Shown here: positions 2,745 through 63,370 of the stretch, piece by piece
How positions within the stretch are numbered: position 1 is the first letter of the stretch
Layout of the letters: each line of letters starts with the position of its first letter
NCBI RefSeq assembly: GCF_963921235.1
Contig: NC_086107.1
Location: 100,752,001-100,816,000 of the forward strand
DNA length: 64,000 nt
Direction of reading: 5' to 3'
From: Mobula hypostoma
Lineage: Eukaryota
Notes under the pieces: model-generated
Databases searched by the model: none
Told to the model about the DNA's origin: nothing
Seen by the model: only the letters and a program-made list of their open reading frames with translations
Translations under genes and position numbers: made by a program

Positions 2745-3920
2745 CTGGACTATACCTCTTCCCTCCCTGTCTCCTATAAAAATGCTGTTCCCTTTTCTCA
2801 GTTCCTTCGTGTCCGCCATATCTGTTCCCAGGATGATGCTTTCCTTTCAGAGATGTCCTCCTCCTCCTACAAAGAATGGGGTTTCCCTTCCTCCACCATC
2901 GATACTGCCCTCACCCACAGCTCCTCCATTTTCTGCATTCACCCCATCTTCCAACCACCCTAACCAGGGATAGAGTTCCATTTGTCCTCACCTACTACCC
3001 CAGGAGCCTCCACATCCAACACATCATTTTCCTCAGCTTACCCTATCTCAAAAGGGATCCTACCACTGAATATACCTTTACCTCCCTCCCTCCACTTTCC
3101 ATAGGGATCACTCCCTCTTTGATTCCCTTGTCCATTTGTCCCTCCCTCTAATCTCCCTCCTGGCACTTGTCCCTGCAAGTGGCCAAAGTGCTACAGCTGC
3201 CCATTCACCTCCATTCAGGGGCCCCAAACAGTTCTTCCATGTGAAGCAACACTTACCTGTGAATCTGCTGGGGTCGTCTGTTGTGTCTGGTGCTGTCAAT
3301 GCGGGCTCTTCTACATCATAAATTGGGGGACCACTTTGTCGAGCACCTCTGCTCCATCTGCCAAAAGCGGAACTTCCTGGTGGCCAAACATTTTAATTCT
3401 GATTCCCCTTCCTGTTTCGGCATGTTGGTTCGTGTCCTCCTTTTGTTCCATGATGAGACTACTCTCAGGGTGGAGGAACAAAACCTTATATACCTTCTGG
3501 GTAACCTCCAATCTAATGGCATGAATATCAATTTTTCCTTCTGGTTAAAAAGAAACTCTCCCCTCTCCACTCTGGTCATTTGCCTCTTCTCACCTGCCTA
3601 TCACCTCTCCCGGATTCCCTCTTCCTTTCCTTTCTCTTGTGGTCCACTTTCCTCTCCTATCAGATTCCTTCCTCTCCAGCCCTTTACCTTTCTTACCCAC
3701 CTGGCTTCACCTGCCACCTTCTAGCCATCCTGCTTTCCTGAACCACCCACCTTTTAGTCTGTCACTTTTCCCCCTTCCTTTCCAGTCCTGATGAAAGGTC
3801 TTGGTCCGAAACACCAACTGTTTATTCATTTCCATAGATGCTGCCTGACCTGCTGAATTCCTCCAGCATTTTGTGTGTGTTGCTCTGGATTTCCAGCGTC
3901 TGCAGAATTTCTTGTGTTTG
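2745..3920 (+). mobile_element. Penelope-like element 3' part (RT thumb, GIY-YIG endonuclease, hammerhead-bearing tail)
   Basis: LDYTSS..KNAVPFSQFLR.R.ICS; LGDHFVEHL..VAKHFNS..EEQNLIY.LGNLQ.NGMN; hammerhead motif at 3783-3820. Confidence 0.85.
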
Positions 3921-4298
3921 CCGTTCCCCTTGAGCTTCATTGAATACCAAATGATCGTGTTTTCCACCTCTTTGCCTTTTTCCTACAGCCTTGCCAACTG
4001 TTTACCCATAATCACAGTTAAAATTAACAATGAGCTTTTAAGTCATATCCCAGTTTAATTCTAGAGCAAAGGACATGACACTGGGGGAGTCTGGCGAGTT
4101 GGACAACATCTGTGAAGGGAAGTGAACATTACGTAAGAAATAAGAGCAGGAGTAGCCCACCTGACCTGTTGAATCCTCTCCGCCATTCAATTAGATCATG
4201 GCTGATCTGGCCCTGAACTCAGCTCCACCTACTTGCACTTTCACCATAGCCCTTACTTCCCCTCAAATGCAAAAATCTATCTTAATTGTGTCTTAAAT

Positions 4299-5005
4299 AT
4301 ACTCAGTAGTCACTTTATTAGGCGCCTCCTATACCTAATAAAGCAGCCAATGTGTGTATGTTTGTGGTCTTCTGCTGCTATGTGTTTTGTGCATTCAGAG
4401 ATGCTGCTCTGTACACCACGGTTGTGTTTATTTGAGTTACTGTCACCTTCCTGTCAGTTAGAACCAGTACGGCCATTCTCTTCTGACCTCTCTGATTAAG
4501 AAGACATTTTTGCCCATCGAACTGCCTCTGACTGGATATTTTTTTTGTTTTTGTGCCATTCTCTGTAAACTCTTAGATAGAGACTATTCTATGTGAAAAT
4601 CCCGATAGATCAGCAGTTTCTGAGATACTTAAATCAACCTGTCTTGCACCAATAATCATTCCATGGTCAGAATTACTTAGATCACATTTCTTCCCCATTC
4701 TGATCTTTAGTCTGTATAGCTACTGTCGGCATGCTTTTTTATACATAGAGTTGATGCCACATGATTTGTTGATTGGAACACTCACAACAGGCTGGAGGAA
4801 CTCATTAGGACTCAGGGTTCCGGCCCGAAACGTCGACTGATCTTTTCCATGGAGGCTGCCCGACCTGCTGAGTTCCTCCAGCATGTTGTGAGTATTGCTT
4901 TGACCCCAGCATCTGCTGATTATTTTGTGTTTACGATTTGCTGATTGGATATTTGCATTATCGAGCAGATGTGCAGGTGTATCTGATAAAGTGGCCACTG
5001 AGTAT
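4299..5005 (-). mobile_element. Tc1-like non-autonomous DNA transposon, interrupted by a Penelope-derived fragment (about 4780-4935)
   Basis: Inverted ends actcagt.gtcactttatta / taaagtggccactgagt; body is the reverse complement of the 25608-26152 family. Confidence 0.75.
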
Positions 5006-5869
5006 ATATTTAATGAGGCTCCTTCTGCTCTTTCCCTGGGCAGTGAATGGGATCCTGATCAGCGATGGCAGCTAAGATGCAAGAGGTTCTGTAGATGCTG
5101 GAAATATTGAGCAATGCACACAAATTGCTGAGGAACTCAGCAGACCCTCCTGATGAAAGGTCTCGCCCCCCCCCCCCCCCCAGGTGTCCAGCATTTTGAG
5201 TGTGTTGCTCCGAGCTGTTGTTTGTCCATTTCCCTCTGCAGGTGCTGCCTGGCCCAGTGCGTTTTTGTTCAGCAAGTGTTTTTTTTCCTCTCTACTTGTG
5301 TTGCATTTTCAACAAATTATTCTAGAGCAAAACATCCAGTAATTTGGTCCATTCTCAGCTAATGGTATCTGCAAAATAATGTGTGGCATTTCAATTTGCC
5401 CTGACACCTTCAAAGATCAGTATTATGGGGTTGTACAGTAGGTAAATCAAGCCCTGCAGCCCACCCAGTTCACACTGATCATCACCCATTGACACTAAAC
5501 AAACACTGGTCTAGTTCCCAGCTTACAGTGCTGAATAAAAGCATTTGGACAGGTATATGATAGGAAAGGTTTAGAGTAGGGGTTCCCAATCTGGGGTCCA
5601 CAGATCCCTCGGTTAATGCTAAGGCTCAATGGCATAAAATAGGCTGGGAACTTCAGAGGGATATGGGCCAAATGGGATCAGCTCAGAAAGACGCCTTGGT
5701 CGGCATGGGAGGGTTGGGCCGAAGAGCCTGTTTCTATGTTGTATGATTCTTGACTATATTACTGACTTGGAGGAGGATACAAGGTATATAAGGCTTTAAA
5801 GTTACTGATGGTGTGACAGTAGGTGAGAAGCCATGCTGTAGAGAGTGTATTTGCACTCTTAAAACAAGG

Positions 5870-7791: not shown

Positions 7792-7941
7792 GTTCTGGAG
7801 ACCTGTGTGAAAAACTGTGGTCATCGATTCCACGTGCTGGTGGCCAGTCGTGACTTTGTGGAGGATGTGCTAGTGAAAACCATTCTGCCGAAGAACAATC
7901 CTCCCAATATAGTGCAGGATAAAGTCCTGAGTTTAATCCAG
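7792..7941 (+). CDS. TOM1: TOM1/TOM1L2-family exon, VHS domain ([50 protein letters not shown])
   Basis: cag|GTT...CAG|gtaaaa; 150 nt, phase 0/0; peptide recognisable as TOM1-family VHS. TOM1 versus TOM1L2 orthology not certain. Confidence 0.93.
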
Positions 7942-10876: not shown

Positions 10877-11559
10877 CAACACACATCGAAGTTGCTGGTG
10901 AACGCAGCAGGCCAGGCAGCATCTCTAAGAAGAGGTACAGTCGACGTTTCAGGCTGAGACCTTTCGTCAGGACTAACTGAAGGAAGAGTTAGTAAGAGAT
11001 TTGAAAGTGGGAGGGGGAGGGGGAGATCCAAAATGATAGGAGAAGACAAGAGGGAGAGGGATGGAGCCAAGAGCTGGACAGGTGATTGGGAAAGGGGATA
11101 TGAGAGGATCATGGGAAAGGTGGCCCGGGGAGAAAGACAGGTGGGGGGGGGGGGAACCAGAGGATGGGCAAGGGGTATAGTCAGAGAGACAGAGGGAGAA
11201 AAAGGAGAGTGACAGAAAGAATGTGTGTATAAAAATAAATAACGGATGGGGTACGAGGGGGAGGTGGGGCATTAGCGGAAGTTAGAGAAGTCAATGTTCA
11301 TGCCATCAGGTTGGAGGCTACCCAGACGGAATATAAGGTGTTGTTCCTCCAACCTGAGTGTGGCTTCATCTTTACAGTAGAGGGGGCTGTGGATAGACAT
11401 GTCAGAATGGGAATGGGATGTGGAATTAAAATGTGTGGCCACTGGGAGATCCTGCTTTCTCTGGCGGACAGAGCGTAGGTGTTCAGCAAAGCGGTCTCCC
11501 AGTCTGCGTCGGGTCTCGCCAATATATAGAAGGCCACATCGGGAGCACCAGACGCAGTA
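10877..11559 (-). mobile_element. Penelope-like element 3' fragment inserted in CR1 with a 9-bp TSD
   Basis: GIY-YIG peptide YIGETRRRLGDRFAEHLRSV..LPVATHFNS..EEQHLIFRLGSLQPDGMN; TATTTAATG at 10868-10876 and 11560-11568. Confidence 0.88.
10939..10974 (-). ncRNA. Minimal type I hammerhead ribozyme motif (family A, intact core)
   Basis: Minus strand AGTC-CTGACGA-A-AGGTCTCAGCCT-GAAA-CGTC-GACT: helix I AGTC/GACT, helix II AGG/CCT, palindromic ACGT helix III, GUC site. Confidence 0.8.
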
Positions 11560-15504: not shown

Positions 15505-15639
15505 GCTTGGGCTGATGCCTTCCGGAGTACTCCAGATCTCACTGGCGTCGTGACTGTTTATGAAGAGCTGAGGAGAAAGGGGCTTGAGTTCCCTATGACT
15601 GATCTTGATGCACTGTCTCCCATCCACACACCCCAGAGA
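15505..15639 (+). CDS. TOM1: TOM1-family exon, end of VHS ([45 protein letters not shown])
   Basis: gcag|GCT...AGA|gtgagt; 135 nt, phase 0/0; nearly identical to the conserved TOM1/TOM1L2 segment. Confidence 0.95.
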
Positions 15640-20410: not shown

Positions 20411-20606
20411 AATTATTCAGGACAGATGAAAGATCTCAGCCCGAAGTGTCGACTTAGGATCTGAGTGTTCTATGTCACTGTGTTCAGTTAGGAGCAGAAG
20501 TAGGTCATCTGGCCCATTGAGTCTGCTCTGCCATTCAATAAGACTATATATGGAAAAATCTGAGTTGTTTGAAATATTGTGGAATATTGGTAGCTCGAGT
20601 TGGCTG

Positions 20607-22797: not shown

Positions 22798-23947
22798 TTG
22801 TTACATGCACCAAGGTACAGTAGAAAAACCTTTGTTTTGCATGCCATCCATGCAGGATGGATCATTTCTTTAAATCAGTACGTTGAGGTGGTACAAGGGT
22901 AAGTAATGACATATGTAGACTAAAATGTTACAGTTATAGGGAAAGTACAGGCAGACAATGTGCAGGGTCATGACGAGGTAGTTTGTGAGGTCACGAGCCC
23001 ATCTAATCATGCAAGGGAACCATTATAACAGTGGGACAGAAGCTGTCTTTTGCCATGTGGTATGTGCATTCTGGTTTCTATATCTTCTCTTCAATGGGAG
23101 GGAGGAGAAAGAGAGTGTATGAAGGTGCTAGGCTCTTTAACTATGTTGACTGCTTTATCAAGGAGTGTAATTGATCGTGACAATTTTTGGGTTGTGTTTC
23201 TTCATTCCAGAAATTTGATTGGGAATGAAGAGATTCAACCCAAAAAACATGCATCTGATGAGATTTCTGCATCAGATACCCACCACACAAAGTCATTCCT
23301 TGTGCATCCATCCATTACCACCAATATTATTTTCCGGGCTGTGACCTCGCTCACATAGTTTGCAACGTTACTGCCCTCTCCCAGCCCTCCACCACAAAAC
23401 CAAAGAAAGCATCAACCACTTCAACCACAGACGTCTCTTTCTAACATTTCCCTTCATGCACACCATTCAACCCCTCCCCTAAAAGGGCCCAATATTTGGC
23501 CAGCCAACTCTATCATCCCCATGACTCCAGATTGCAGTTGGGCCATGTATTTCTGGCTAGTCACTTCCATCACACCATGAGGCCCCATCATGGCCACTGA
23601 CTGTTGGATCTCAGCCCCCTTTCTCCTACCCTTCTTTCTATCTCTCTGTTGCTAGCCTCAGTCACATGAATTCTTCTGGTCAAAAGTTGCCCTCCATAAA
23701 CTACCCACACTTGAACTTCCCCAGAGCAGGGGTTCCCAACTTGAGGTCCGTGGATCCCTTACTTAATGGTATTGGTCCATGGCATAAAAAATGATTGGAA
23801 CCCCTTCCCTGGAGGTGCAGCATTTTCTCCATGGTTTTGTTCCTCCATATCTGGTCTCTGCGAAATGAACTCTTCAACGTGCTTTCAACACACACAAAAT
23901 GCTGAAGGAACTCAGCAGGTCAGGCAGCATCAATGCAAAGGAGTAAA

Positions 23948-45800: not shown

Positions 45801-48800
45801 AATTTTAGCTATCACAGCCTGCTCAATTCAAAGGAAAACAAACCCAGTCTCCTTTCAATTGAAATGCTCCATTTCCAGGCAACATCCTGGCGAATATCCT
45901 CCACACCCTCTCCAGCACAATCATATCCTTCCTATAGTGTAGTGACCAGAACTGTACACAATACTCCTGATATTGTCTAACCAATGTTTATATGATGTTG
46001 TTACAAATTGTCTCAACTTTTATATTGTATGCCATGGCTAGTTAATGTAAATATGCCATATACCTTCTTCCCCACCTTATCCAATTCAGGAAAACTATGG
46101 ACTTGACAACCAAGTCCCTCTGTTCATTAGTATTTAACTATCTAGGATCCTACCCTAGTTTGCCTTCTTTCAAAATACATCAGCTTGAATTTGTCAAGAT
46201 TAAATTGGTCTTTTGGCTATGGGAGAAGAAGTTGAGCACCCAGGATGACAGAGAGTACATGTGAACTCCAGGGAAAACACCACACTGCAGGTGCTGTGTA
46301 ATGAAGCTACACTATTAACTGCAGCACTCTTCTGCTATGCACTGTGAGTTGTGATCTGGCACACATTGGTCATTTTAACCGCACTTAAAAGTTGAAGCAT
46401 TTAATAACCAAAAATATTCAATTTTAGTGATACTGAGTAAAGACAAACTTCCCTGAGCTGAATCACAAATAAACACTGAACAGTTTACCCCAAAATAAAT
46501 TATGCATCACAGAATTTTGCATAAACTTCTCAAAACCACCATGTGATAATTATCAAAGGATCTGTTTTAGTGACGCTGATTGATAATCTCTAGTCTGCTG
46601 ACATCAGTGAAGTATCATCTCAAAATATTTAACTACTCTTTCAATCACCTTTCTGAAATATAATTAATGAAAACATTAGTACCAATTAACATTACAATAC
46701 ATAATTACCTATTGAAAATCTTCACTTAATTCCTTATCCCTCCTACTCTAAAACTCAAGTGTTGACCAGTTAGTGAAACCTCACTACTAACTACTATATT
46801 TGTTTTGTGTCCTCATCTTTCCCTTTTGCTGCACTTTGGCAATATCATCGAGGTTAGCTTCTATATTAACTTTCTTCTTTGCCAAGTCTTCTCAGCCCCT
46901 TGGTTAGCTCCACAGTACTATTTTTATCTTGTGACCAACCATAAGAAACCAAACACTTTATTGTGTTTGGCTTCTACTCTTTTTCCAGCATTTCTCCCCC
47001 TAACCATTTCTACGTTCTCTCCACATAAAATATCTTAGGATATTTAAAAAAAAAATTTAATTTATTTTTTTATTTAGATATACAGCATGGTAACTAGCCC
47101 TTTCTAGCCCAATGAGTCTGCACTGTCCAATTAACCTACTAACCTGTATGTCTTTGGAATGTGGGAGGAAACAGGAGCACCCAGAGGAAACCCAATTTTG
47201 TATCTGGGTCTAAGACTACTTCCATAGCAATTCCCACCTCTGCTCTGAAACCATTTTACATATTATTTTCACCTTCATGGTTAACCTATAAAAAGCGCCA
47301 TATAAGCTTACAAAGCTGGAATATTTTCCAAATCCAGATTTTTTGGAAACCTGGACCAAGGTAAATCAAACAAAGGGTCTCAAATACAAGTTTTGATGAC
47401 AGATCTGTGTCATTCTTTCCCAACATACTGGCAAGAGGGCTTAACAAATGAGATGCAGTCAGTGAATGGCAAAAAATAAAAAGGGTTTAAGGTACCTATA
47501 AAAAGATGTGAAATTCTGAAAATAAAATGTGTGACAACATAAAAATTTCATTTTATCAATCTCATGAGTGACATGTTTATTCTTTAACCCTTCAGCCCCA
47601 CATATTCTCACAAATATTAGCAAATAATAAAATTTGTTGTATTTACTACAGATCTATTTCTTTACCCAAGCACTAAGATACCTCTCTCACACCTGGGAGA
47701 TGCCCTGAAAACAGTCATGATAAGCACTTTTTAGTTAGATTGATATCATGCTCAGAAATTCCAAAGACAACTAAAGAGGTTCCTTGAACTTGTGGAACGT
47801 AGCAGGCCAGGCATCATCTATAGGAAGAAGTACAGTTGACATTTCGGGTCAAGGCCCTTCGTCAGGACTAACGGAAAAAAAGAGATAGCAAGAGATTTGA
47901 AAGTGTGAGGGGGAGGGGGGAGACCCGAAACGATAGGAGAGGACAGGAGGGGGAGGGATGAAGCCAAGAGCTGGGAAGTTGATTGACAAAAGGGATACAA
48001 GGCTGGAGAAGGGGGAGTATCATAGGACAGAAGGCCTTAGAAGAAAGAAAGAGGGAGGGGAGCACCAGAGGAAGATGGAGAACAGGCAAGGAGTTATTGT
48101 GAGAGGGAAAGAGAAAAAAAATTAGGGATGGGGTATGAAGGGGACGAGGGGCATTAACAGAAGTTAGAGAAATCAATGTTTATGCCATCAGGTTGGAGGC
48201 TACCCAGATGGAATACAAGGTGTTGTTCCTCCAACCTGAGTGTGATTCTCCTGTTTGCGGTCTTGAATTTGTGTTCAAGCAGCTGCAACAATAACCTGCA
48301 TTTACGTGGCAACCTATATTCCAAGGCATTACACAGAAATATTACCAATCAAAAATTGTCACAACCACATATAGGAACAGAGGTAGATCTTAAAGAACAT
48401 CTCAAAAGTGGAGAGGTAAAGTGGTATCCGTAATAACTGCCAGAAGTTCAAGTCAGCCATAGCCATACTGAAGTCAACTGTGTACATGAAAGAGGCCAAT
48501 GGAGGAGCATAGAAATCTTCGACAATTGTAGGGCTGATGAAGGAACAGAGATATAGAGTAGGATAATGGAGGGATCTATAAAAGAGAATAAACAGAAAAT
48601 GAAATACCCAGCAGATGAAGAGACATCTAAAGAGAAAGAGTTAATGACCCATCATCATAACGAGGAAGAATTGGAAATAAAGCATACTTCACGTTGTAGG
48701 AAAGGCTGAATGAAGAGAAGATATATGTAACAGAGTTTAAACCTCTATTCTTACCCCCACTCTGCAATTCAGAACATTTTCTTTCTAACTTTTTCTAGTT

Positions 48801-49698
48801 CTGATGAAAGGTCATTGACCTGAAAAAAGTTTCTTTCTCTCTCTCTCTCTCTCTCTACAGATGCCACTTGACCAGCTGAGTTTTTCCAACATTTTGTTTT
48901 TATTCCTACAGACCAACACCTCAAGCCTTTGCTTTCTGGAATAAATGTTGGCAGCATTAAGTGTTTATGTTATTTTATTTCCCAAGACGACATTTTTTTT
49001 AAAAAAGATTATTTGGCTCTTCAAAAGGTAATGAATGAATGAATGAACTCTTTATATGCATTCCAAGAGGCATAACAGGAATTTATGAAGCAGAATTTGA
49101 CTTAAAATACAAAGAGATAATAGAATATAAATTTTGCAGAATATCTTATAGGAGGAGAGATGTATAGATATACTATTTTTGTTCATTAATTTAATAAAAA
49201 TATAGTGTTTGGTGACCATAGAGATGGAAGGTCCACCTCTGAGTGCAATTCTGTGTATATCGCACAGGACTGATGAATTTTAAACCAGTTCTTAGGATTA
49301 TATTTTTAAACTCCTGCATTTTATTCTCAAATTGGAAAACCAGCAGTTCAACTTATAATGCACAATTGAGTTGGTACTGTTAAGGTTCATTACTTAACAG
49401 TAATGGAAGAACTCAAAGCCTTTTAAACTCAGATTCTGGGATTGTTACCATCATTTCAGGGATTACATTCAATAATTCAAACCCATTTTATTGATATGAA
49501 TCAAAACAAATGCGGGTTTGATAATGACATTGCTTCTTTCAATTAAAGGTAGCAGCGGTATTGACAGCAAATCCATAAGGGCTACTGCCATGCTAAAAGT
49601 ATTTTCTTCAGTCTTGTATAGGTGCCAGTGACAGATTTCTAGCAGCTCCAGTCAGCAGTATATTAACAGTCTCAACAATTGTCATGTTGCTCAGTGGG

Positions 49699-49824
49699 TC
49701 ATAATTCAGATCTTGTCTTTGTAATCCTTGGCCCTTTTCGAAGCTCCTTCCTCTTATCTACTTTTTTCCTCCTTTTCTCCTCATCTTTCAAGGCTTTGCG
49801 AAAGGCATCATTATCGTCAGTAAA
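49699..49824 (-). other. CCDC134: Mirror copy of the CCDC134 terminal exon in the left palindrome arm (probably artefactual)
   Basis: Reverse complement of 56290-56415 with one substitution (KKEDKR to KKVDKR). Confidence 0.8.
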
Positions 49825-52800
49825 CTGTAAAATACAAATAACAGTGCTGGATCAATTTGTGAATCGGATCTTTTAACATTTGTCATTCTCAATAGCACCC
49901 TCAATGTAGCTTTACAAATCACTGATTCATTGGTTAACAATGAGAAATAATTTGTTTTTACTTTGTTACATTAATAGTAAATAAAGAAACTATTCTGTTA
50001 AGATTTTAGGGAAAAGCTAAAGTCATGGAGCCTTTGAAGTGATAGTTTGTGAACAATAACTCTGGTGTTTGAAAAGATTTGTTAGGTTTCAGGCACCTAA
50101 TTTCGGTGCCACAGTAGCGTAGCAGATAGCACAATGCTACCACAGCTCGGGGCATTCCAGAGTTTAGAGTTCAGTTCCAGTGCTGTCTGTAAGGAGTCCG
50201 TACACCCTCCCCGTAGAATGCTGGGTTTTCCCCAGGTGCTCCAGTTTCCTCCCACAGTCCAAAGACATACCAGGTAGGTTAATTATAAATTCTCCAATGA
50301 ATAGGTTAGGGTTAATTGGGGTTGTAGGGACCCGGAGGCAGCGTGACTCAAGGGGCCAGAAGGTCCAACTGCGTGACATATTGCAAAGTAAATAAAATGA
50401 ATAATTAGATGTAAAATGCAAGTTTAACAGATAATTCTGTGATTCTGTAAACAGACACAGCATTATGGAACAACCAGATAAGTGACAAAAAAAAACACAA
50501 AATTGTGTTACTGAAAATGATATCTCATCTTTTGGATAGTTCCAGATACTTCGCATGTAACAAAGGTCAATAGCAGATGCAATCTCAATGGCTTTCCGTG
50601 GGGCTTTAGACCATCTGGACAACACAAACACCTATGTCAGGATGCTGCATCGACAATAGCTCAGCATTTCATTCCCACAATGCTGATTGAAAAGTTGCAG
50701 AACCTGGGACTCTGTACCTCCCTCTGCAATTGGATCCTCGACTTCCTAACTGGAAGACCACAATCTGTGCAGATTGGTGATAACATCTTCTCCTTGCTGA
50801 CAATCAACACTGGCGCACCTCAGGGGTGTGTGCTTAGCCCACTTCTCTACTCTGTAAGTACACATGACTGCGTGGCTAGGTACACCTCAAATACCATCTA
50901 TAAATATGCTAACGATACAACCATTGTTGATAGAATCTCAGGTGGTGACGAGAGGGCGTACAGGAGTGAGATATGCCAACTAGTGGAGTGGTGCCACAGC
51001 AACAACCTGGCACTCAATGTCAGTAAGATGAAAGAGCTGATTGTGGTACAACTTCATAAACCATTAGGTCACAACTGGGGTACTACAGGCAGTTCTGGTT
51101 TGTTTATTTGTTTAGTGATACAGCACAGAGTAGGCTCTTCTGGCCCTTCGAGACACGCCGCCCCAGCAACCCAACAACCTAGATTAACCCTAACCTTATC
51201 ATGGGACAATTTACAATGACTAATTAACCTACCTGGTGCATCTTTCGACTGTGGGAGGAAACTAAAGCACCCTAGGAACACGCATGCATTCTACAGGGTG
51301 GATGCAGAGAGACCCTTTATAGAAGTGTCAGAATTGAACTCCAAACTCTGGAAGGCCCCAAGCTGTATTAGTGTCACGCTAACCACTTACACTACTGCCG
51401 CACCCATATGGTTTTCTCAATATACGAAGGAAATGATTGCACAGGAAAGAGTCACAGGATGCTTCTTAGCATGAAACATCTCACCTATGAAAAGACCGTA
51501 AGACAATGGTGCAGAATCAGGCCATCGGCCCATCAAGTCTGCTCCACCAATTGATCATAGCCGATTTATTATCCCTCTCAACCCCCATTCTCCTGCCTCA
51601 TCCCCATAACTTTTGATGCCTCTACTAATCAAGAACCTATCAACCTCCACTTAAAATATTCCTAATTAATTGGCCTCCACAGCCATCTTTGTTCACCTCC
51701 ACAAATTCACAACCCTCTGGTTAAAGATTCTTGCTCATCTCTGTTCTAAAGGGATGTCCTTCTATTTTGCAGCTGTGCCTTCTGGTCTTAGACTCCCCCA
51801 AAATAGGAAATATCCTCTTCACACCCACTCTGTCTAAGCCTTTTAATATTCAATAGATTTGGAACTCGGTGTTCTGGAAGACTTCTATTTTGGAGGTGAG
51901 CAAGATGGACTGATAAAGGTTGTGGATGTGGGCAACAGAGAGGCAGAGGCAGAGAAGGCAGTAAGCGATGATCAAGAGGAAAGGGAATGGCAAACAAATG
52001 AGTCAGATATGGAGGTGAACAGTGCATGGGATGGTGGGGGGAGGAAAGAGGGAGAGAAATACATTTTCAGTTAGATGGTTAACCAATTAAAACAGCCAGA
52101 GGCTGAAGGAACTGAATATGCAGAGTATGCAGAGTAAGACAGCTCTGGTATCAGTACGTACCTTGGAAAATCTCTGGCTTATTGTCAGTCTTAAAACTGG
52201 ATAGCCTGAGTGACAATACGAAGAGTGATTAACATGTCAAGAAGGCAAAAGAGACAACGGATTCTGAAATCTGGCATCAAAAAAATTGCTGGAATGTTGG
52301 AAGAACTCATTCCATCAGAAAGACACTGGATAGGCTGGCTTTGTTTTTCTCAGAACAAAATAGAAGGGAACATGACTGAGATAAGCAAAAATCTGAGGGA
52401 CACTGCTAAAAGTAGATGCCTTCCCAGCATCCAAGACACCTTCAAAAGGCAATAGCTCAAAAAGGCTGCATCTATTGTTAAGGACCCCCATCACCCAGGA
52501 CATGCCCCCTTCTCATTGCCACCATCAAGAAGGTATAGGAGCCTGAGACACACACTCAGGAATAGCTTCTTCCCCTCTGCCATCAGATTTCTAAATGAAC
52601 AATGAACCCATTAACACTACTTCACATTTATTTTGCACTACTAATATTTTTTAATATATATATTTCTTATTGTAACTTATGTTTATTAGTATGTATTACA
52701 ATGTACTGCTGCCACAAAACAAATTTATGACATTTGCCAGTGATATTAAACCTGATTCTGAGAAACTTTCATGCACAGCAGAGATGTAAAATCAGAGCAT

Positions 52801-53359
52801 AAAAGTAAGGGGTGGAGGTTTGCAGGGAATCAGAACTTCTTTTTCTATCCAGATGTTGGTTGTAATATGGAGGGAGTGGTAGAGGCAGAAAGCTTCCCAA
52901 CACTTAATAAGGATCTATAGGAACCCTTGAATTCTTATGGCATGGAAGGCTAAGAGAAGTGTTGGAAAAATGGGAATAGCATAGACATAGTTTATGATTG
53001 GCACGGTCATGGTAGGCTAGTGTCTGTTTCTGTGCAATATAACTCAAATACTCGATAACTTCCATTGAGTATTTGAGTTATATTGCACAGAAACAGACAC
53101 TAGCCTACCATGACCGTGCCAATCATAAACTATGTCTATGCTATTCCCATTTTTCCAACACTTCTCTTAGCCTTCCATGCCATAAGAATTCAAGGGTTCC
53201 TATAGATCCTTATTAAGTGTTGGGAAGCTTTCTGCCTCTACCACTCCCTCCATATTACAACCAACATCTGGATAGAAAAAGAAGTTCTGATTCCCTGCAA
53301 ACCTCCACCCCTTACTTTTATGCTCTGATTTTACATCTCTGCTGTGCATGAAAGTTTCT

Positions 53360-53710
53360 CAGAATCAGGTTTAATATCACTGGCAAATGTCATAAATTTG
53401 TTTTGTGGCAGCAGTACATTGTAATACATACTAATAAACATAAGTTACAATAAGAAATATATATATTAAAAAATATTAGTAGTGCAAAATAAATGTGAAG
53501 TAGTGTTAATGGGTTCATTGTTCATTTAGAAATCTGATGGCAGAGGGGAAGAAGCTATTCCTGAGTGTGTGTCTCAGGCTCCTATACCTTCTTGATGGTG
53601 GCAATGAGAAGGGGGCATGTCCTGGGTGATGGGGGTCCTTAACAATAGATGCAGCCTTTTTGAGCTATTGCCTTTTGAAGGTGTCTTGGATGCTGGGAAG
53701 GCATCTACTT
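53360..53710 (-). mobile_element. Rex1/Babar-type 3' end (mirror at about 52410-52760)
   Basis: LPSIQDTFKR..KKAASIVKDP motif and aaacctgattctga tail. Confidence 0.75.
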
Positions 53711-54254
53711 TTAGCAGTGTCCCTCAGATTTTTGCTTATCTCAGTCATGTTCCCTTCTATTTTGTTCTGAGAAAAACAAAGCCAGCCTATCCAGTGTCTT
53801 TCTGATGGAATGAGTTCTTCCAACATTCCAGCAATTTTTTTGATGCCAGATTTCAGCATCCGTTGTCTCTTTTGCCTTCTTGACATGTTAATCACTCTTC
53901 GTATTGTCACTCAGGCTATCCAGTTTTAAGACTGACAATAAGCCAGAGATTTTCCAAGGTACGTACTGATACCAGAGCTGTCTTACTCTGCATACTCTGC
54001 ATATTCAGTTCCTTCAGCCTCTGGCTGTTTTAATTGGTTAACCATCTAACTGAAAATGTATTTCTCTCCCTCTTTCCTCCCCCCACCATCCCATGCACTG
54101 TTCACCTCCATATCTGACTCATTTGTTTGCCATTCCCTTTCCTCTTGATCATCGCTTACTGCCTTCTCTGCCTCTGCCTCTCTGTTGCCCACATCCACAA
54201 CCTTTATCAGTCCATCTTGCTCACCTCCAAAATAGAAGTCTTCCAGAACACCGA

Positions 54255-54620
54255 GTCCAAATCTATTGAATATTAAAAGGCTTAGACAGAGTGGGTGTGA
54301 AGAGGATATTTCCTATTTTGGGGGAGTCTAAGACCAGAAGGCACAGCTGCAAAATAGAAGGACATCCCTTTAGAACAGAGATGAGCAAGAATCTTTAACC
54401 AGAGGGTTGTGAATTTGTGGAGGTGAACAAAGATGGCTGTGGAGGCCAATTAATTAGGAATATTTTAAGTGGAGGTTGATAGGTTCTTGATTAGTAGAGG
54501 CATCAAAAGTTATGGGGATGAGGCAGGAGAATGGGGGTTGAGAGGGATAATAAATCGGCTATGATCAATTGGTGGAGCAGACTTGATGGGCCGATGGCCT
54601 GATTCTGCACCATTGTCTTA
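54255..54620 (+). mobile_element. CR1 3' end (mirror at about 51500-51860)
   Basis: Homologous to 39740-40110. Confidence 0.75.
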
Positions 54621-54714
54621 CGGTCTTTTCATAGGTGAGATGTTTCATGCTAAGAAACATCCTGGACTCTTTCCTGTGCAATCATTTCCTTCGTATATTG
54701 AGAAAACCATATGG

Positions 54715-55010
54715 GTGCGGCAGTAGTGTAAGTGGTTAGCGTGACACTAATACAGCTTGGGGCCTTCCAGAGTTTGGAGTTCAATTCTGACACTTCTATA
54801 AAGGGTCTCTCTGCATCCACCCTGTAGAATGCATGCGTGTTCCTAGGGTGCTTTAGTTTCCTCCCACAGTCGAAAGATGCACCAGGTAGGTTAATTAGTC
54901 ATTGTAAATTGTCCCATGATAAGGTTAGGGTTAATCTAGGTTGTTGGGTTGCTGGGGCGGCGTGTCTCGAAGGGCCAGAAGAGCCTACTCTGTGCTGTAT
55001 CACTAAACAA
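54715..55010 (+). mobile_element. V-SINE (mirror at about 51110-51405)
   Basis: V-domain ttcctagggtgctttagtttcctcccacagtc. Confidence 0.75.
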
Positions 55011-55071
55011 ATAAACAAACCAGAACTGCCTGTAGTACCCCAGTTGTGACCTAATGGTTTATGAAGTTGTA

Positions 55072-55560
55072 CCACAATCAGCTCTTTCATCTTACTGACA
55101 TTGAGTGCCAGGTTGTTGCTGTGGCACCACTCCACTAGTTGGCATATCTCACTCCTGTACGCCCTCTCGTCACCACCTGAGATTCTATCAACAATGGTTG
55201 TATCGTTAGCATATTTATAGATGGTATTTGAGGTGTACCTAGCCACGCAGTCATGTGTACTTACAGAGTAGAGAAGTGGGCTAAGCACACACCCCTGAGG
55301 TGCGCCAGTGTTGATTGTCAGCAAGGAGAAGATGTTATCACCAATCTGCACAGATTGTGGTCTTCCAGTTAGGAAGTCGAGGATCCAATTGCAGAGGGAG
55401 GTACAGAGTCCCAGGTTCTGCAACTTTTCAATCAGCATTGTGGGAATGAAATGCTGAGCTATTGTCGATGCAGCATCCTGACATAGGTGTTTGTGTTGTC
55501 CAGATGGTCTAAAGCCCCACGGAAAGCCATTGAGATTGCATCTGCTATTGACCTTTGTTA
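55072..55560 (-). mobile_element. Rex1/Babar-type RT fragment (mirror at about 50560-51045)
   Basis: [39 protein letters not shown]. Confidence 0.88.
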
Positions 55561-55724
55561 CATGCGAAGTATCTGGAACTATCCAAAAGATGAGATATCA
55601 TTTTCAGTAACACAATTTTGTGTTTTTTTTTGTCACTTATCTGGTTGTTCCATAATGCTGTGTCTGTTTACAGAATCACAGAATTATCTGTTAAACTTGC
55701 ATTTTACATCTAATTATTCATTTT

Positions 55725-56015
55725 ATTTACTTTGCAATATGTCACGCAGTTGGACCTTCTGGCCCCTTGAGTCACGCTGCCTCCGGGTCCCTACAACCCC
55801 AATTAACCCTAACCTAATCACGGGACAATTTATAATTAACCTACCTGGTATGTCTTTGGACTGTGGGAGGAAACTGGAGCACCTGGGGAAAACCCAGCAT
55901 TCTACGGGGAGGGTGTACGGACTCCTTACAGACAGCACTGGAACTGAACTCTAAACTCTGGAATGCCCCGAGCTGTGGTAGCATTGTGCTATCTGCTACG
56001 CTACTGTGGCACCGA
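55725..56015 (-). mobile_element. V-SINE (mirror at about 50105-50395)
   Basis: tttggactgtgggaggaaactggagcacctggggaaaaccc. Confidence 0.8.
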
Positions 56016-56289
56016 AATTAGGTGCCTGAAACCTAACAAATCTTTTCAAACACCAGAGTTATTGTTCACAAACTATCACTTCAAAGGCTCCATGACTTTA
56101 GCTTTTCCCTAAAATCTTACAGAATAGTTTCTTTATTTACTATTAATGTAACAAAGTAAAAACAAATTATTTCTCATTGTTAACCAATGAATCAGTGATT
56201 TGTAAAGCTACATTGAGGGTGCTATTGAGAATGACAAATGTTAAAAGATCCGATTCACAAATTGATCCACTGTTATTTGTATTTTACAG

Positions 56290-56415
56290 TTTACTGACGA
56301 TAATGATGCCTTTCGCAAAGCCTTGAAAGATGAGGAGAAAAGGAGGAAAAAAGAAGATAAGAGGAAGGAGCTTCGAAAAGGGCCAAGGATTACAAAGACA
56401 AGATCTGAATTATGA
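56290..56415 (+). CDS. CCDC134: CCDC134 terminal coding exon ([41 protein letters not shown])
   Basis: ttttacag| acceptor, 41 codons + TGA; matches the remembered human C-terminus (..[34 protein letters not shown]) with a KDEL-like end; AATAAA at 56622 and 56789 downstream. No upstream exons found in the window. Confidence 0.9.
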
Positions 56416-57871
56416 CCCACTGAGCAACATGACAATTGTTGAGACTGTTAATATACTGCTGACTGGAGCTGCTAGAAATCTGTCACTGGCACCTATACAA
56501 GACTGAAGAAAATACTTTTAGCATGGCAGTAGCCCTTATGGATTTGCTGTCAATACCGCTGCTACCTTTAATTGAAAGAAGCAATGTCATTATCAAACCC
56601 GCATTTGTTTTGATTCATATCAATAAAATGGGTTTGAATTATTGAATGTAATCCCTGAAATGATGGTAACAATCCCAGAATCTGAGTTTAAAAGGCTTTG
56701 AGTTCTTCCATTACTGTTAAGTAATGAACCTTAACAGTACCAACTCAATTGTGCATTATAAGTTGAACTGCTGGTTTTCCAATTTGAGAATAAAATGCAG
56801 GAGTTTAAAAATATAATCCTAAGAACTGGTTTAAAATTCATCAGTCCTGTGCGATATACACAGAATTGCACTCAGAGGTGGACCTTCCATCTCTATGGTC
56901 ACCAAACACTATATTTTTATTAAATTAATGAACAAAAATAGTATATCTATACATCTCTCCTCCTATAAGATATTCTGCAAAATTTATATTCTATTATCTC
57001 TTTGTATTTTAAGTCAAATTCTGCTTCATAAATTCCTGTTATGCCTCTTGGAATGCATATAAAGAGTTCATTCATTCATTCATTACCTTTTGAAGAGCCA
57101 AATAATCTTTTTTAAAAAAAATGTCGTCTTGGGAAATAAAATAACATAAACACTTAATGCTGCCAACATTCATTCCAGAAAGCAAAGGCTTGAGGTGTTG
57201 GTCTGTAGGAATAAAAACAAAATGTTGGAAAAACTCAGCTGGTCAAGTGGCATCTGTAGAGAGAGAGAGAGAGAGAGAAAGAAACTTTTTTCAGGTCAAT
57301 GACCTTTCATCAGAACTAGAAAAAGTTAGAAAGAAAATGTTCTGAATTGCAGAGTGGGGGTAAGAATAGAGGTTTAAACTCTGTTACATATATCTTCTCT
57401 TCATTCAGCCTTTCCTACAACGTGAAGTATGCTTTATTTCCAATTCTTCCTCGTTATGATGATGGGTCATTAACTCTTTCTCTTTAGATGTCTCTTCATC
57501 TGCTGGGTATTTCATTTTCTGTTTATTCTCTTTTATAGATCCCTCCATTATCCTACTCTATATCTCTGTTCCTTCATCAGCCCTACAATTGTCGAAGATT
57601 TCTATGCTCCTCCATTGGCCTCTTTCATGTACACAGTTGACTTCAGTATGGCTATGGCTGACTTGAACTTCTGGCAGTTATTACGGATACCACTTTACCT
57701 CTCCACTTTTGAGATGTTCTTTAAGATCTACCTCTGTTCTGATATGTGGTTGTGACAATTTTTGATTGGTAATATTCCTGTGTAATGCCTTGGAATATAG
57801 GTTGCCACGTAAATGCAGGTTATTGTTGCAGCTGCTTGAACACAAATTCAAGACCGCAAACAGGAGAAAAA

Positions 57872-58320
57872 CCACACTCAGGTTGGAGGAACAACACCTT
57901 GTATTCCATCTGGGTAGCCTCCAACCTGATGGCATAAACATTGATTTCTCTAACTTCTGTTAATGCCCCTCGTCCCCTTCATACCCCATCCCTAATTTTT
58001 TTTCTCTTTCCCTCTCACAATAACTCCTTGCCTGTTCTCCATCTTCCTCTGGTGCTCCCCTCCCTCTTTCTTTCTTCTAAGGCCTTCTGTCCTATGATAC
58101 TCCCCCTTCTCCAGCCTTGTATCCCTTTTGTCAATCAACTTCCCAGCTCTTGGCTTCATCCCTCCCCCTCCTGTCCTCTCCTATCGTTTCGGGTCTCCCC
58201 CTCCCCCTCACACTTTCAAATCTCTTGCTATCTCTTTTTTTCCGTTAGTCCTGACGAAGGGCCTTGACCCGAAATGTCAACTGTACTTCTTCCTATAGAT
58301 GATGCCTGGCCTGCTACGTT
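57872..58320 (+). mobile_element. Penelope-like 3' fragment (mirror at about 47795-48245)
   Basis: TLRLEEQHLVFHLGSLQPDGINIDFSNF, pyrimidine-rich tail, hammerhead motif. Confidence 0.85.
58246..58283 (+). ncRNA. Family A hammerhead motif (mirror copy at about 47833-47870)
   Basis: TAGTC-CTGACGA-A-GGGCCTTGACCC-GAAA-TGTC-AACTG at the end of a Penelope-like fragment. Confidence 0.65.
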
Positions 58321-59899
58321 CCACAAGTTCAAGGAACCTCTTTAGTTGTCTTTGGAATTTCTGAGCATGATATCAATCTAACTAAAAAGTGCTTATCATG
58401 ACTGTTTTCAGGGCATCTCCCAGGTGTGAGAGAGGTATCTTAGTGCTTGGGTAAAGAAATAGATCTGTAGTAAATACAACAAATTTTATTATTTGCTAAT
58501 ATTTGTGAGAATATGTGGGGCTGAAGGGTTAAAGAATAAACATGTCACTCATGAGATTGATAAAATGAAATTTTTATGTTGTCACACATTTTATTTTCAG
58601 AATTTCACATCTTTTTATAGGTACCTTAAACCCTTTTTATTTTTTGCCATTCACTGACTGCATCTCATTTGTTAAGCCCTCTTGCCAGTATGTTGGGAAA
58701 GAATGACACAGATCTGTCATCAAAACTTGTATTTGAGACCCTTTGTTTGATTTACCTTGGTCCAGGTTTCCAAAAAATCTGGATTTGGAAAATATTCCAG
58801 CTTTGTAAGCTTATATGGCGCTTTTTATAGGTTAACCATGAAGGTGAAAATAATATGTAAAATGGTTTCAGAGCAGAGGTGGGAATTGCTATGGAAGTAG
58901 TCTTAGACCCAGATACAAAATTGGGTTTCCTCTGGGTGCTCCTGTTTCCTCCCACATTCCAAAGACATACAGGTTAGTAGGTTAATTGGACAGTGCAGAC
59001 TCATTGGGCTAGAAAGGGCTAGTTACCATGCTGTATATCTAAATAAAAAAATAAATTAAATTTTTTTTTTAAATATCCTAAGATATTTTATGTGGAGAGA
59101 ACGTAGAAATGGTTAGGGGGAGAAATGCTGGAAAAAGAGTAGAAGCCAGACACAATGTGTTTGGTTTCTTATGGTTGGTCTTAAGACAAAAATAGTACTG
59201 TGGAGGTAACCAAAGGGCTGAGAAGACTTGGCAAAGAAGAAAGTTAATATAGAAGCTAACCTCGATGATATTGCCAAAGTGCAGCAAAAGGGAAAGATGA
59301 GGACACAAAACAAATATAGTAGTTAGTAGTGAGGTTTCACTAACTGGTCAACACTTGAGTTTTAGAGTAGGAGGGATAAGGAATTAAGTGAAGATTTTCA
59401 ATAGGTAATTATGTATTGTAATGTTAATTGGTACTAATGTTTTCATTAATTATATTTCAGGTGATTGAAAGAGTAGTTAAATATTTTGAGATGATACTTC
59501 ACTGATGTCAGCAGACTAGAGATTATCAATCAGCGTCACTAAAACAGATCCTTTGATAATTATCACATGGTGGTTTTGAGAAGTTTATGCAAAATTCTGT
59601 GATGCATAATTTATTTTGGGGTAAACTGTTCAGTGTTTATTTGTGATTCAGCTCAGGGAAGTTTGTCTTTACTCAGTATCACTAAAATTGAATATTTTTG
59701 GTTATTAAATGCTTCAACTTTTAAGTGCGGTTAAAATGACCAATGTGTGCCAGATCACAACTCACAGTGCATAGCAGAAGAGTGCTGCAGTTAATAGTGT
59801 AGCTTCATTACACAGCACCTGCAGTGTGGTGTTTTCCCTGGAGTTCACATGTACTCTCTGTCATCCTGGGTGCTCAGATTTTCTCCCATAGCCAAAAGA

Positions 59900-60650
59900 C
59901 CAATTTAATCTTGACAAATTCAAGCTGATGTATTTTGAAAGAAGGCAAACTAGGGTAGGATCCTAGAGCGTACTAATGAACAGAGGGACTTGGTTGTCAA
60001 GTCCATAGTTTTCCTGAATTGGATAAGGTGGGGAAGAAGGTATATGGCATATTTACATTAACTAGCCATGGCATACAATATAAAAGTTGAGACAATTTGT
60101 AACAACATCATATAAACATTGGTTAGACAATATCAGGAGTATTGTGTACAGTTCTGGTCACTACACTATAGGAAGGATATGATTGTGCTGGAGAGGGTGT
60201 GGAGGATATTCGCCAGGATGTTGCCTGGAATGGAGCATTTCAATTGAAAGGAGACTGGGTTTGTTTTCCTTTGAATTGAGCAGGCTGTGATAGCTAAAAT
60301 TATGAGGGGATAGGGAGGGTAAATAGTAAAAATCTTTTTCCATAGTGGGAGTATCCAGGACAAGAGTCTGTAGGTTTAAAGTTAGAGACTCGAAGTTTAG
60401 AGATGACCTGAGGGAGGGTTTTATTTCTTCCAGACCATATAGTCTGGAATGTGCTGTTTGGAGAGTTACTGATGGCAGATACTCTCATATTTAAGAAATT
60501 TCTAGATAAATATTTGAATCGCTGAGACATAAAGTTATAGGCCTGATGTAGGTAAATGGGATGAATGTAAATAATCCCATAAATAATGTACAGCAGGTGG
60601 CATAGATATGGTGAGCTGAAGGTCCTTTTCCTGTATGACTATGATGTACA
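59900..60650 (+). mobile_element. Degraded CR1 3' part (mirror at about 45460-46200)
   Basis: YKTLVRQYQEYCVQFWS; LERV.R.F.RMLPG. Confidence 0.75.
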
Positions 60651-62351
60651 GTTTGCTAAGTTAACTTCCCTCAGTTGTTTAGGAGCACCATCTGGGAAAA
60701 TCTTCCTTCCTCATGAACTTTATTCTTTTTTTGACTTGTCTTTCACTCATGATTTTTAATCATAACTGAAGTTTGATGTTTCTATTTGATTAAGATGTTC
60801 ATTGCACGTGCATTCCCTGATTTTCCCCTTTACGATTGTTAGATTTACCTCTCTGTCCTCTTCACTAAATGTACTGTATTAACTTCCTTTTACCATCTGT
60901 TCAGATTATTTTAATGGTTACTAACTTTGGTTTCAAGATTACAACATCTCATATTCTAATGCCTCTCCAAACTTCCCTCCTTGCCATTTCTGGTAATATT
61001 TACAACTGATAGATCAATGTGTTCAAGACTTAAAACAAAATCGAATGGTTCAGAAGTCCCTGGCATTTGAAGACTTACAGTGCAAGGTTTGGCTGGGATG
61101 GTTCTCCTTGGAGGAAAACAATTAAACTCACCTCAAGATCAGGGGCGTATTTAAAATTTTTGGCCAAATGACAATGGGGAATTGTGTGGAAAAATGTTTT
61201 TACATCATGATCTGAAACTTCATGGAAGCAATCAGACTCTACAATGTGGCATTTGACAGACACTTGATAGAGAACATTTTCAGGCTTTTGTGAAGCAGCA
61301 GGAATCTAGAGCAATTTCATTAGTCTACTTAACAGCAGGCAGAAATACTTCCCTGAACTACTACCAATGTTGTAGTGATTCTCCTGTTATCCTTGTACTT
61401 GTATGCTATGATGATCTGTATTTTAGTGGTAGTATCTTGTTATTGCTAAATTGGTAGCCATTTTGGAAAAAAAAAACAGCAAGAGGTGCTTTATTAACAC
61501 ACAAGCGAGTTCTGGCCATTTTTATAAAATACAGTCTCTTAAGCTGTATCTCCTGAGTGTCAAGAAGTGTTCAGTGCAGTAAAGGTGCTGTATCTATCGC
61601 AAATCCAGTGATGCAGCTTCAATTTTGAGCTTGTGTGAATGTAGTCTGAGTTTGAGTTTCTATAAGATGTTCTAGTTTCCTCACACATTCCAGAAGTGTT
61701 CTTATTGATTTGCTACTGTAGAGAAAAAAGACATGTTAGGAAAAAGCTATGTAGGGGTCGTTAGAGGTGGTGGGAGCAAGAGAAATGGGACCTTTTTTCT
61801 GTGCTCATAGTCATATGTAACACAGGGACGGGCATGGAAAAAAGTAGTTGACATTTCGGGTTGAAACCCTTTGGCAAGACTGACATTTATTTTAATCTCA
61901 TTTGGTCCAAATACCGGCATCTGCACTTAACCATCTTTCTCTTTTAATCACATTTGTAATTACCATTATAAGTCAGTGAATTCAATGTTTTTTTAGACAT
62001 GTACTTTGCTGATATACTACTTTGTTTGGCATATATCCCTCCAAATCTTTCCTATCCTAGTAAAGCAAGTCCTTCAGTCTTAGCAACTTACACGAAATGC
62101 TGGAGGAACTCAGCAGGCCAAGCAGCATCTATGGAAAAAGAGACTAATCGACGTTTCAGGCTGAGACCCTTCATCAAGACTGGAGAAAAAACGAGGAGTC
62201 AATGTTTAAAAGTGGTGGGGTGGGGGAAGAGAGTGATAGGTGAAAATGTGGGGAGGGGGCGATGGGTTTGAAGTAAAGACCTGGGGAGTTGATTGGTGAA
62301 AGAGATACAGGGCTGGAGAAGGGGGAGTCTAATAGAGGACATATATATATA

Positions 62352-62575
62352 ACACATCACGCGGAAAGATGAACTAGAAAAACTCAGACTCTCTGGAAAG
62401 ATTGAGGGGAGCAAACCTAGAGGAAGACCTTGGCTTATGTACATCAAAAGCATAGCCAGGTGGCTACACATCGAGGAAATGGAAGTCATCCAAAAAACGA
62501 AGGATAGATCTATATGGAAAGCCATGGTCACCAAAGTCCGCATCGGATAGGGTACCTAGACAGACAGACAGACTT
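62352..62575 (+). mobile_element. RTE-clade LINE extreme 3' end with (AGAC)n tail (mirror at about 43520-43740)
   Basis: HITRKDELEKL.LSGKIEGSKPRGRP..YIK..DRSIWK. Confidence 0.65.
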
Positions 62576-62824
62576 TGCTGATGCTATAGTACCAAGAATA
62601 AACCACTGCCTCACGACAATGGAGGCCTGGTTTCTATCCCCAACTCATCAGGTGCTGTCTGTGTGGAGTATACATGCTCTCCCTGTGACACTCTAGGTTT
62701 TCCATAGAGTGCTCCAGTTACATCCCAAAGAGGTGCAGGTTGGGTGGTCAGTAAATTGCACCAAGTGAAGACTGAGGGAGAATATGCTATGGGGAAGTAA
62801 AGGATGTATTGGTTCAGACTGAAG

Positions 62825-63370
62825 GAACAAGATCTCCCAGTGACCACCCATTTTATTTCCACTTCTCATTCTGACATGTCCATCAATGGTCTCCTCTATT
62901 GTCCTGATGAGGCCACACTCAGGTTGGAGGACCAACATCTTGTATTCCATCTGGGTAGCCTCCAACCTGATGGCATGAACATCAATTTGTCGAATTTCTG
63001 GTAACTGCCCCTCCTTCACCATTCCCCATTCCCATTTCCCTCTCTCACCTTATCTCCTTACCTGCCCATCACCTTCCTCTGGTGCTCCTTCCCCTTTTCT
63101 TTCTTCCATGGCCTTTTGTCCTCTATTAGATTCCCCCTTCTGCAGCCCTGTATCTCTTTCACCAATCAACTCCCCAGGTCTTTACTTCAAACCACCCCAC
63201 TACCCCCAGCATTTTCACCTATCACTCCCCCCACCACTTTTAAACATTGACTCCTCGTTTTTTCTCCCGTCCCGATGAAGGGTCTCAGCCCGAAACTTCA
63301 ACCATTCTCTTTTTCCCATTGATGCTGCTTGGCCTGCTGAGTTCCTCCAGCATTCCGTGTAAGTTGCTAA
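62825..63370 (+). mobile_element. Penelope-like 3' fragment (partial mirror at 42836-43265)
   Basis: QDLPVTTHF..SHSDMSI..EDQHLVFHLGSLQPDGMN; degenerate hammerhead at about 63269-63302. Confidence 0.85.

Follow-up and report, generated by a model that had tools for sequence, protein, structure and literature searches.

The window analysed here is a stretch of 64,000 nucleotides (nt) from the ray Mobula hypostoma (GCF_963921235.1, NC_086107.1:100,752,001-100,816,000), and all coordinates are positions within it. It holds exons of a TOM1-type gene and, scattered over both strands, copies of a motif of about 38 nt that a preliminary description took for minimal type I hammerhead ribozymes borne by the ends of Penelope-like elements. 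Regular-expression and profile searches recovered the motif in a 36-nt form at all 12 sites named there, and with the mirrors of a large palindrome counted once there are 13 motif-bearing loci. Very probably these sites are 3' ends, pieces of the pseudo-long terminal repeats (pseudo-LTRs), of a highly abundant Neptune-type Penelope-like retrotransposon, the dispersed copies, those in TOM1 introns included, being neutral relics. The copies, some of which retain traces of the reverse transcriptase (RT), the endonuclease (EN) or the untranslated region (UTR) of the element, are as follows.

2743..3923, plus strand: 5'-truncated copy of the putatively Neptune-type element, retaining part of the RT thumb, the CX4CxxC linker, a disrupted GIY-YIG, the UTR, a decayed hammerhead, the downstream segment and the tail
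3784..3819, plus strand: hammerhead motif, U16.1 changed and helix III broken; inactive by core rules
4778..4941, both strands: head-to-head short unit; left arm 4778-4809(-) without motif, right arm from ~4810(+) beginning in helix II and with tail
5079..5213, both strands: short unit of two head-to-head arms; the left, 5079-5146(-), bears the tail, and the right, from 5148(+), has only the 5' half of the motif, broken by a C run
10877..11559, minus strand: best-preserved 5'-truncated copy, with GIY-YIG end, stop at 11272-11274, UTR, hammerhead and the short end without tail
10939..10974, minus strand: the sole fully intact motif, with full core, helix I of 4 bp, helix II of 4 bp, ACGU and A10.1-U11.1; antisense to TOM1
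20419..20454, plus strand: degenerate solo motif, U4 and A15.1 changed
23886..23996, minus strand: short copy; motif 23949-23984 with intact core, G10.1-C11.1 and a helix III mismatch; antisense to TOM1
25061..25273, both strands: head-to-head unit; G12 is changed in the left arm, 25061-25127(-), and U16.1 in the right arm, 25128-25273(+), which has the tail
43751..44010, plus strand: UTR and motif 43911-43946, C3 changed; mirror 62082-62341(-)
44211..44266, plus strand: degenerate short copy with three core changes; mirror near 61826-61883(-)
48797..48900, plus strand: sister-family copy lacking U16.1, with a helix II of 5 bp that an A-U pair closes; mirror near 57210-57319(-)
57869..58322, plus strand: 5'-truncated copy with the last ~30 EN codons, UTR and motif 58247-58282, in which the core is intact and the first helix I pair broken; mirror 47794-48244(-)
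62822..63368, plus strand: 5'-truncated copy with EN end, UTR and motif 63268-63303, U4 changed

Beyond the 13 loci, the arms 4778-4809(-) and 5079-5146(-) carry only the segment 3' of the motif; these were missed in the preliminary description, as was the sister-family copy at 48797-48833 (mirror near 57317). Copies 43911 and 63268 share their downstream flank (87% identity over 324 bp) and so are probably not independent insertions, leaving about 12 independent loci. Motif features were counted over 12 scored rows, omitting 5150(+), 5146(-) and 4809(-), from which most of the motif is missing, and the covariation alignment contained 11 copies, 48801 also being omitted as one base longer; mirrors were counted once. 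Row labels such as 3788, 10970, 23980, 25140 and 58251 are positions inside the respective motif copies.

A degenerate pattern allowing up to three mismatches matched the window seven times and none of 100 shuffled sequences (mean 0.00, maximum 0), and a structural descriptor of the minimal hammerhead ribozyme (min-HHR) matched it once (10939-10974, minus strand), against 0 matches in 200 random 64-kb sequences. An Rfam search of the window gave 16 matches at E values up to 10, the hammerhead family not being among them, presumably because the motif lacks helix III. Degenerate motif scans of viral and of metagenome contigs gave 0 and 0 matches. That the family is very large, as had been claimed, is borne out by the 9,690-78,770 contigs that align to one 801-bp copy in each of four public runs, these figures being counts of contigs which, like depth, do not represent copy numbers.

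The motif occupies the terminal repeat 3' of the RT-EN open reading frame (ORF), and four copies have the GIY-YIG end upstream of it. It does not directly follow this coding end as had been proposed; in these four copies the distance is ~230-300 nt, behind a pyrimidine-rich UTR. The 96-residue frame at 11275-11562(-) matches Pfam GIY-YIG with 22.1 bits (E 1.9e-4), just under the curated cut-off of 22.6, and its best relatives, 30 of 72 candidates, include ray gene models from Mobula hypostoma and Hypanus sabinus with 77-93% identity; the 10877-11559 copy is 93% identical to a Mobula protein. The ray homologues contain RT motifs, a CX4CxxC linker and a C-terminal CCHH-type GIY-YIG domain, and a CX2-5CxxC linker between RT and EN is present in the 2743 copy, in the ray homologues and in 37 of 38 long relatives. 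Judged by such motifs the carrier fits a Neptune-type element, that is Neptune or Nematis under the definitions given in PMC8557442. Several public ray gene models with host-gene names (P0003, P0005, P0018, P0028) are fused to, or consist mostly of, RT/EN sequence of the element, which is thus leaking into ray gene annotation.

Hammerhead positions are given in the generally used numbering, and the splicing branch-point consensus referred to below is likewise common knowledge. The majority sequence of the copies keeps all 11 core positions (C3-A9, G12-A15.1, U16.1-H17), the extra base and the palindromic 15.2-16.2, and so upholds the assignment to Penelope-type minimal type I hammerheads, having every min-HHR trait listed in PMC4209133. 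The extra A that had been noted between A9 and 10.1 is found in all 12 scored rows. The palindromic ACGT said to replace helix III is present in the majority sequence, but it is intact in only four of the 11 aligned copies. The core itself is intact in three of the 12 scored copies (10970, 23980 and 58251), with helices I and III also intact only in 10939-10974, and nearly every copy in the window is, by its sequence, a mutated leftover in decay.

A compensatory pair in helix II, GGG/CCC against AGG/CCT, had also been put forward. Across the 11 aligned copies the 10.1-11.1 pair is GC in seven, AC in two, AU in one and GU in one, and in the four public contig sets G10.1 makes up 99.6, 99.3, 96.9 and 94.6% of the depth and C11.1 17, 25, 74 and 42%. 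As G10.1 is near-fixed and U11.1 common, A10.1 is a change (G>A) private to 10939-10974 on a common C>T variant, and the proposed compensatory pair is not covariation. Over the 11 copies, of essentially one family, covariation did not exceed that of shuffled alignments, the score being 0.109 against 0.141, with 467 of 500 shuffles scoring as high. In the sister copy at 48797-48833, which also has an expanded (TC)n tract, helix II is different yet fully paired, a single case read by eye since the alignment displaces that row by one base. At 10951/10962 in runs X1 and X5 the G10.1-U11.1 pair has more depth than G-C, which points to a subfamily of high copy number in which a hammerhead pair that is normally fixed has become a wobble. 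U11.1 may arise by recurrent CpG decay or be fixed in a source gene, the data being compatible with both.

Among the copies the core is kept in 115 of 132 cells (87%), as against 379 of 443 (86%) in the adjacent downstream segment, and CpG columns are kept in 53 of 72 cells against 816 of 988 elsewhere, indicating faster CpG decay. Between subfamilies the motif is 75-78% identical, the EN end 72-89% and the 100 nt of UTR before the motif 52-54%; the same pattern, with motif and EN kept and the UTR not, is seen in hundreds of contigs in two runs that diverge exactly at 10974 and 11277. The core-conservation comparison set out in the preliminary description is therefore answered in two ways, the motif standing above the upstream UTR between subfamilies but not above the downstream segment among copies. 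The pattern between subfamilies is in favour of constraint in the source elements.

The best predicted fold of 10939-10974 as a monomer is a rod, at -10.0 kcal/mol (z -1.26), with core positions G5-G8 paired to 15.2-17 of the cleavage strand. For the hammerhead dimer the energy is -10.7 kcal/mol, against -20.0 for two separate monomers and -23.2 for the most stable dimer; the hammerhead dimer is geometrically possible but not the lowest in energy, under an energy model that ignores tertiary core contacts. In both 10939-10974 and 23949-23984 positions 5-8 pair fully with 15.2-17 (C7-G16.2 in one case and U7-A16.2 in the other), a pairing that favours an inactive rod and may be due to chance CpG decay. 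These predictions fit the low or protein-dependent hammerhead activity described in PMC4209133 and PMC11167929. They would also be expected if the motif were catalytically dead even in the source elements and were kept as a structural, promoter or protein-binding element, a reading to which the common G10.1-U11.1 pair in the public runs lends some weight, as do the in vitro insertion that did not need cleavage (PMC11167929) and the failure of eight of nine Xenopus dimers to cleave (bioRxiv 10.64898/2026.07.22.740005). We consider this unlikely, given the complete core, extra base and palindrome of the majority sequence and the absence of core positions from the 40 best-supported of 172 difference rows in the public contigs; moreover the related Anolis motif is described as cleaving with protein help and as responding to C3/G8 mutations (PMC11167929).

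Target-site duplications (TSDs) of 8, 8, 9 and 12 bp were found at four of the 11 copies or units searched; in random 36-nt windows such matches have chances of 0.016, 0.016, 0.004 and 0.0008, respectively, the search window for the 2743 copy having been larger than this. The 2743-3923 copy, in which the tblastn match of ray Penelope-like proteins begins at 2745, is flanked by an 8-bp direct repeat at 2735-2742 and 3924-3931; the unit 4778-4941 has an 8-bp TSD and interrupts an unrelated repeat; the 10877-11559 copy has an AT-rich TSD of 8-9 bp (10868-10876 and 11560-11568) within another repeat; and the unit 25061-25273 has one of 12 bp (25049-25060 and 25274-25285). At the unit 5079-5213 a TSD of at least 6 bp was searched for and not found, and (TA)n targeting was not seen at the four TSDs. 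Joints 10870>11563 corresponding to the empty site occur in all four public runs (7, 5, 2 and 3 contigs), so that 10877-11559 is an insertion into another repeat, which we read from its translation as a probable long interspersed nuclear element. The copies have two alternative 3' ends ~35 bp apart, the ~35-bp tail being optional, and the tail extension also appears in the public runs, where loose ends stand at 10876 and 10869. In a single record of one run the end of the element is joined to a copy that begins within EN, making a partial tandem. An inverted truncated arm and an optional tail (PMC8557442), TSDs of 8-10 bp with solo and inverted pseudo-LTRs (PMC3846280) and hammerhead pairs on opposite strands (PMC4209133) are all reported for such elements.

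The preliminary description had the family spreading partly as short non-coding units. This holds in so far as short units with their own TSDs imply that some insertions were short from the start, but a separately spreading family is not borne out, as the three head-to-head units (4778-4941, 5079-5213 and 25061-25273) have three different junctions and the tail on a single arm each, so that truncation products fit better than a fixed non-autonomous family. The 5' ends of copies range from inside the downstream segment to ~1,040 nt upstream, with truncation points of the other copies at ~165, 380, 450, 590 and 1040 nt upstream. It would nevertheless be conceivable that the short units form a non-autonomous family, resembling short interspersed nuclear elements or retrozymes, whose RNAs start a little 5' of helix I and depend for their mobility on the Penelope protein acting in trans. 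Two short units (4778-4941 and 25061-25273) have their own TSDs, the upstream edge of the motif is where the arms 25128(+), 25127(-) and 5148(+) start, as do, with less certainty, 44211 and 20419, and the depth just 3' of the motif is slightly above that of the EN end in two runs, depth being no copy number; in addition, animal retrozymes derived from pseudo-LTRs are presented in a 2026 preprint (bioRxiv 10.64898/2026.07.22.740005). Besides the differing junctions and truncation points, this reading, which seems to us quite unlikely, is countered by the two largest runs, in which the EN end is deeper than the motif, and by the lack of tandem units, the closest pairs on one strand, 299 and 336 nt apart, consisting of unrelated degenerate copies; tandem hammerhead units, the hallmark of retrozymes, were sought in the window by spacing and self-comparison and none were found.

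The predicted cut in 10939-10974 lies between 10943 and 10942. It is crossed by 11 of the 12 scored copies and, for its 3' part, by the partial 4814 copy. A model built on the segment 3' of the cut found 18 rows, mirrors and two chance-level rows among them, and not one is a copy that begins at the cleavage site. The insertion template would thus have been uncut tandem RNA or a re-ligated circle. An ATG ~20 nt after the cut is kept in nine of ten copies and opens ~16 codons to the short end, or ~28 with the tail; comparable repeat-borne ORF starts of 12 and 22 codons are described in PMC3846280, and the next tandem unit probably starts at the conserved ATG. The putative N-terminal peptide showed no meaningful similarity to 68 proteins.

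On the preferred reading, in which the sites are the 3' ends of a Penelope-like retrotransposon, the pseudo-LTR of the source elements would hold a minimal type I hammerhead, preceded by the UTR that follows GIY-YIG and followed by the codon with which the next tandem unit probably starts. The element protein would nick AT-rich DNA, by analogy with what is described of Anolis Poseidon in PMC11167929, and reverse transcription would start ~60-100 nt 3' of the hammerhead, where two alternative internal sites define the tail, and copy back through the uncut hammerhead. Early stops would give the short units, and nicking and extension of both DNA strands could yield the head-to-head units. The ribozyme would matter only in the source elements, presumably cutting weakly as a dimer or with the help of protein.

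Several points weigh against this interpretation. The clade is assigned from motifs, the window holding no RT core, so the Neptune label is provisional; nor does the window hold a full-length element bearing two pseudo-LTRs. In two runs G10.1-U11.1 is dominant by depth, unlike the canonical G-C pair, and the 11-12 copies scored are a weak basis for covariation. The conservation of the motif could in part reflect an overlapping promoter, start-codon context or protein-binding site. Finally, about five of 15 arms start no more than ~12 nt upstream of the core, two of these boundaries being uncertain, which is more clustered than random truncation suggests and gives a weak hint of a preferred 5' end.

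A pyrimidine tract followed by YAG lies directly before the conserved ATG, 42-56 nt after the core CUGAY (3820-3840 and equivalents; strongest at 48830-48860). Both tract and YAG are found in six of ten copies, with 58251 counted at its first ATG. This raises the possibility that the pseudo-LTR starts a short RNA upstream of helix I with the hammerhead in a leader intron, whose acceptor would abut the ATG and whose branch point would be CUGAY; the spliced form would then serve as mRNA and the unspliced, uncut RNA as a template copied in trans as head-to-head units. Taken jointly these steps appear improbable. No splice joint onto the acceptor-like site is present among the listed 15 of 331 joints and 24 of 2,607 loose ends, and a 5' donor at the ORF stop is not conserved across the four EN-bearing copies.

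The TOM1-type gene was identified from four exons.

7792..7941, plus strand: TOM1-type exon, VHS (Pfam VHS E 1.4e-11; PDB 1elk, Target of Myb1, E 9e-24; AG/GT borders)
15505..15639, plus strand: TOM1-type exon, end of VHS (weak Pfam match, E 0.028)
27584..27700, plus strand: TOM1-type exon, GAT start (Pfam E 0.0036)
29508..29641, plus strand: TOM1-type exon, GAT (Pfam E 1.7e-9)

The exon at 7792-7941 is closest in the PDB to human TOM1. Copies 10970, 20424, 23980, 25124 and 25140 lie between these exons, so the placement of copies in TOM1 introns stands, and three further copies upstream of the first identified exon are probably in an earlier intron. With so many copies in the gene one might suppose that they are co-opted ribozymes acting on the TOM1 pre-mRNA, comparable to the hammerheads conserved in introns of amniotes. 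The core is not intact in any of the five copies on the sense strand (3788, 4814, 5150, 20424 and 25140), however, both intact cores in the gene (10970 and 23980) being antisense, in contrast to what co-option of the RECK type would entail, and no copy has helix III as a monomer. Such a role is extremely improbable; the sole copy intact in full lies antisense to TOM1, so that nothing in the intronic position points to a function. The unit 25061-25273 is predicted to form a long imperfect hairpin in the TOM1 pre-mRNA. An Rfam match to MIR5048 at 25060-25208 was rejected, being below the family cut-off and merely the inverted unit.

Part of the window is duplicated in inverted orientation.

42836..63256, both strands: near-perfect palindrome of 20.4 kb (99.3%) seen by self-comparison, starting at a 200-N gap and duplicating four motif copies

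The palindrome has a spacer of ~11 nt at its centre near 53,060 and could stem from a fold-back in the assembly instead of being a genuine inverted duplication. A second inverted repeat, 41244-41861 / 42000-42635, of 636 bp and 95.8% identity, borders that gap on its other side, adding to the suspicion of an assembly problem. The segment 63640-63960 is rich in GC and CpG with an ATG near 63,862, and resembles a promoter with the first exon of a further gene.

The motif class is not new. Min-HHRs in the pseudo-LTRs of metazoan Penelope-like elements were described by Cervera and De la Pena in 2014 (PMC4209133), and the ray sequences are new only as a member from a ray. With the min-HHRs of that paper they share the type I order, the CUGANGA core, the extra base before 10.1, G10.1-C11.1 in most copies, the palindromic 15.2-16.2 without loop III, the short helix I and the U-rich 5' flank, as well as the location in the 3' repeat of truncated copies that are mostly solo, with opposite-strand pairs nearby. 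They differ in coming from a cartilaginous fish, none being among the 56 motifs read from Fig. S3 of that paper. Unlike the typical min-HHR, helix II is at the short end (three G-C and one U-G), G10.1-U11.1 is common in two runs and no covariation was seen in the 11 copies. With the Neptune-clade elements that carry EN, as described in PMC8557442 (Craig et al, 2021) and PMC3846280, they have in common the C-terminal GIY-YIG with CCHH, the CX2-5CxxC linker, 5' truncation, an adjacent inverted copy, an optional tail of 30-40 bp at one end and TSDs of 8-10 bp, and presumably a repeat that ends in the first ORF codons; the ray element, known from partial copies, may belong to either Neptune or Nematis. 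Two 3' ends one tail apart, templates with an uncut hammerhead and an AT-rich target are also features of Poseidon PAc from Anolis carolinensis (Frangieh et al, 2024, PMC11167929), the ray TSD at 10868 starting with ATT on the element strand. PAc belongs to another clade, and its ORF starts at stem II, whereas the ray ATG lies ~20 nt after the cut behind an acceptor-like tract. The animal non-LTR retrozymes of bioRxiv 10.64898/2026.07.22.740005 are similarly short non-coding repeats, related to pseudo-LTRs, that contain a type I hammerhead, but they are tandem with a hammerhead per unit, while the ray copies are solo or head-to-head without common unit ends. The same preprint reports retrozymes and Penelope-like elements in one chondrichthyan, and the ray family may already be in its supplementary tables. 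A literature search covering few subscription journals and excluding Repbase found no paper devoted to ray or shark Penelope hammerheads.

Were the leader-intron reading true, splicing and self-cleavage would constitute a switch in vertebrate Penelope elements, giving the Penelope ribozyme a regulatory role, and the short units would be a true non-autonomous class. The copies described here extend a known class of retroelement ribozymes to the genome of a ray, and they caution that an intronic hammerhead-like repeat is no evidence of ribozyme function. With 5' ends that can be counted over thousands of insertions, the size of the family makes it a usable data set on whether hammerhead cleavage serves the transposition of Penelope elements.

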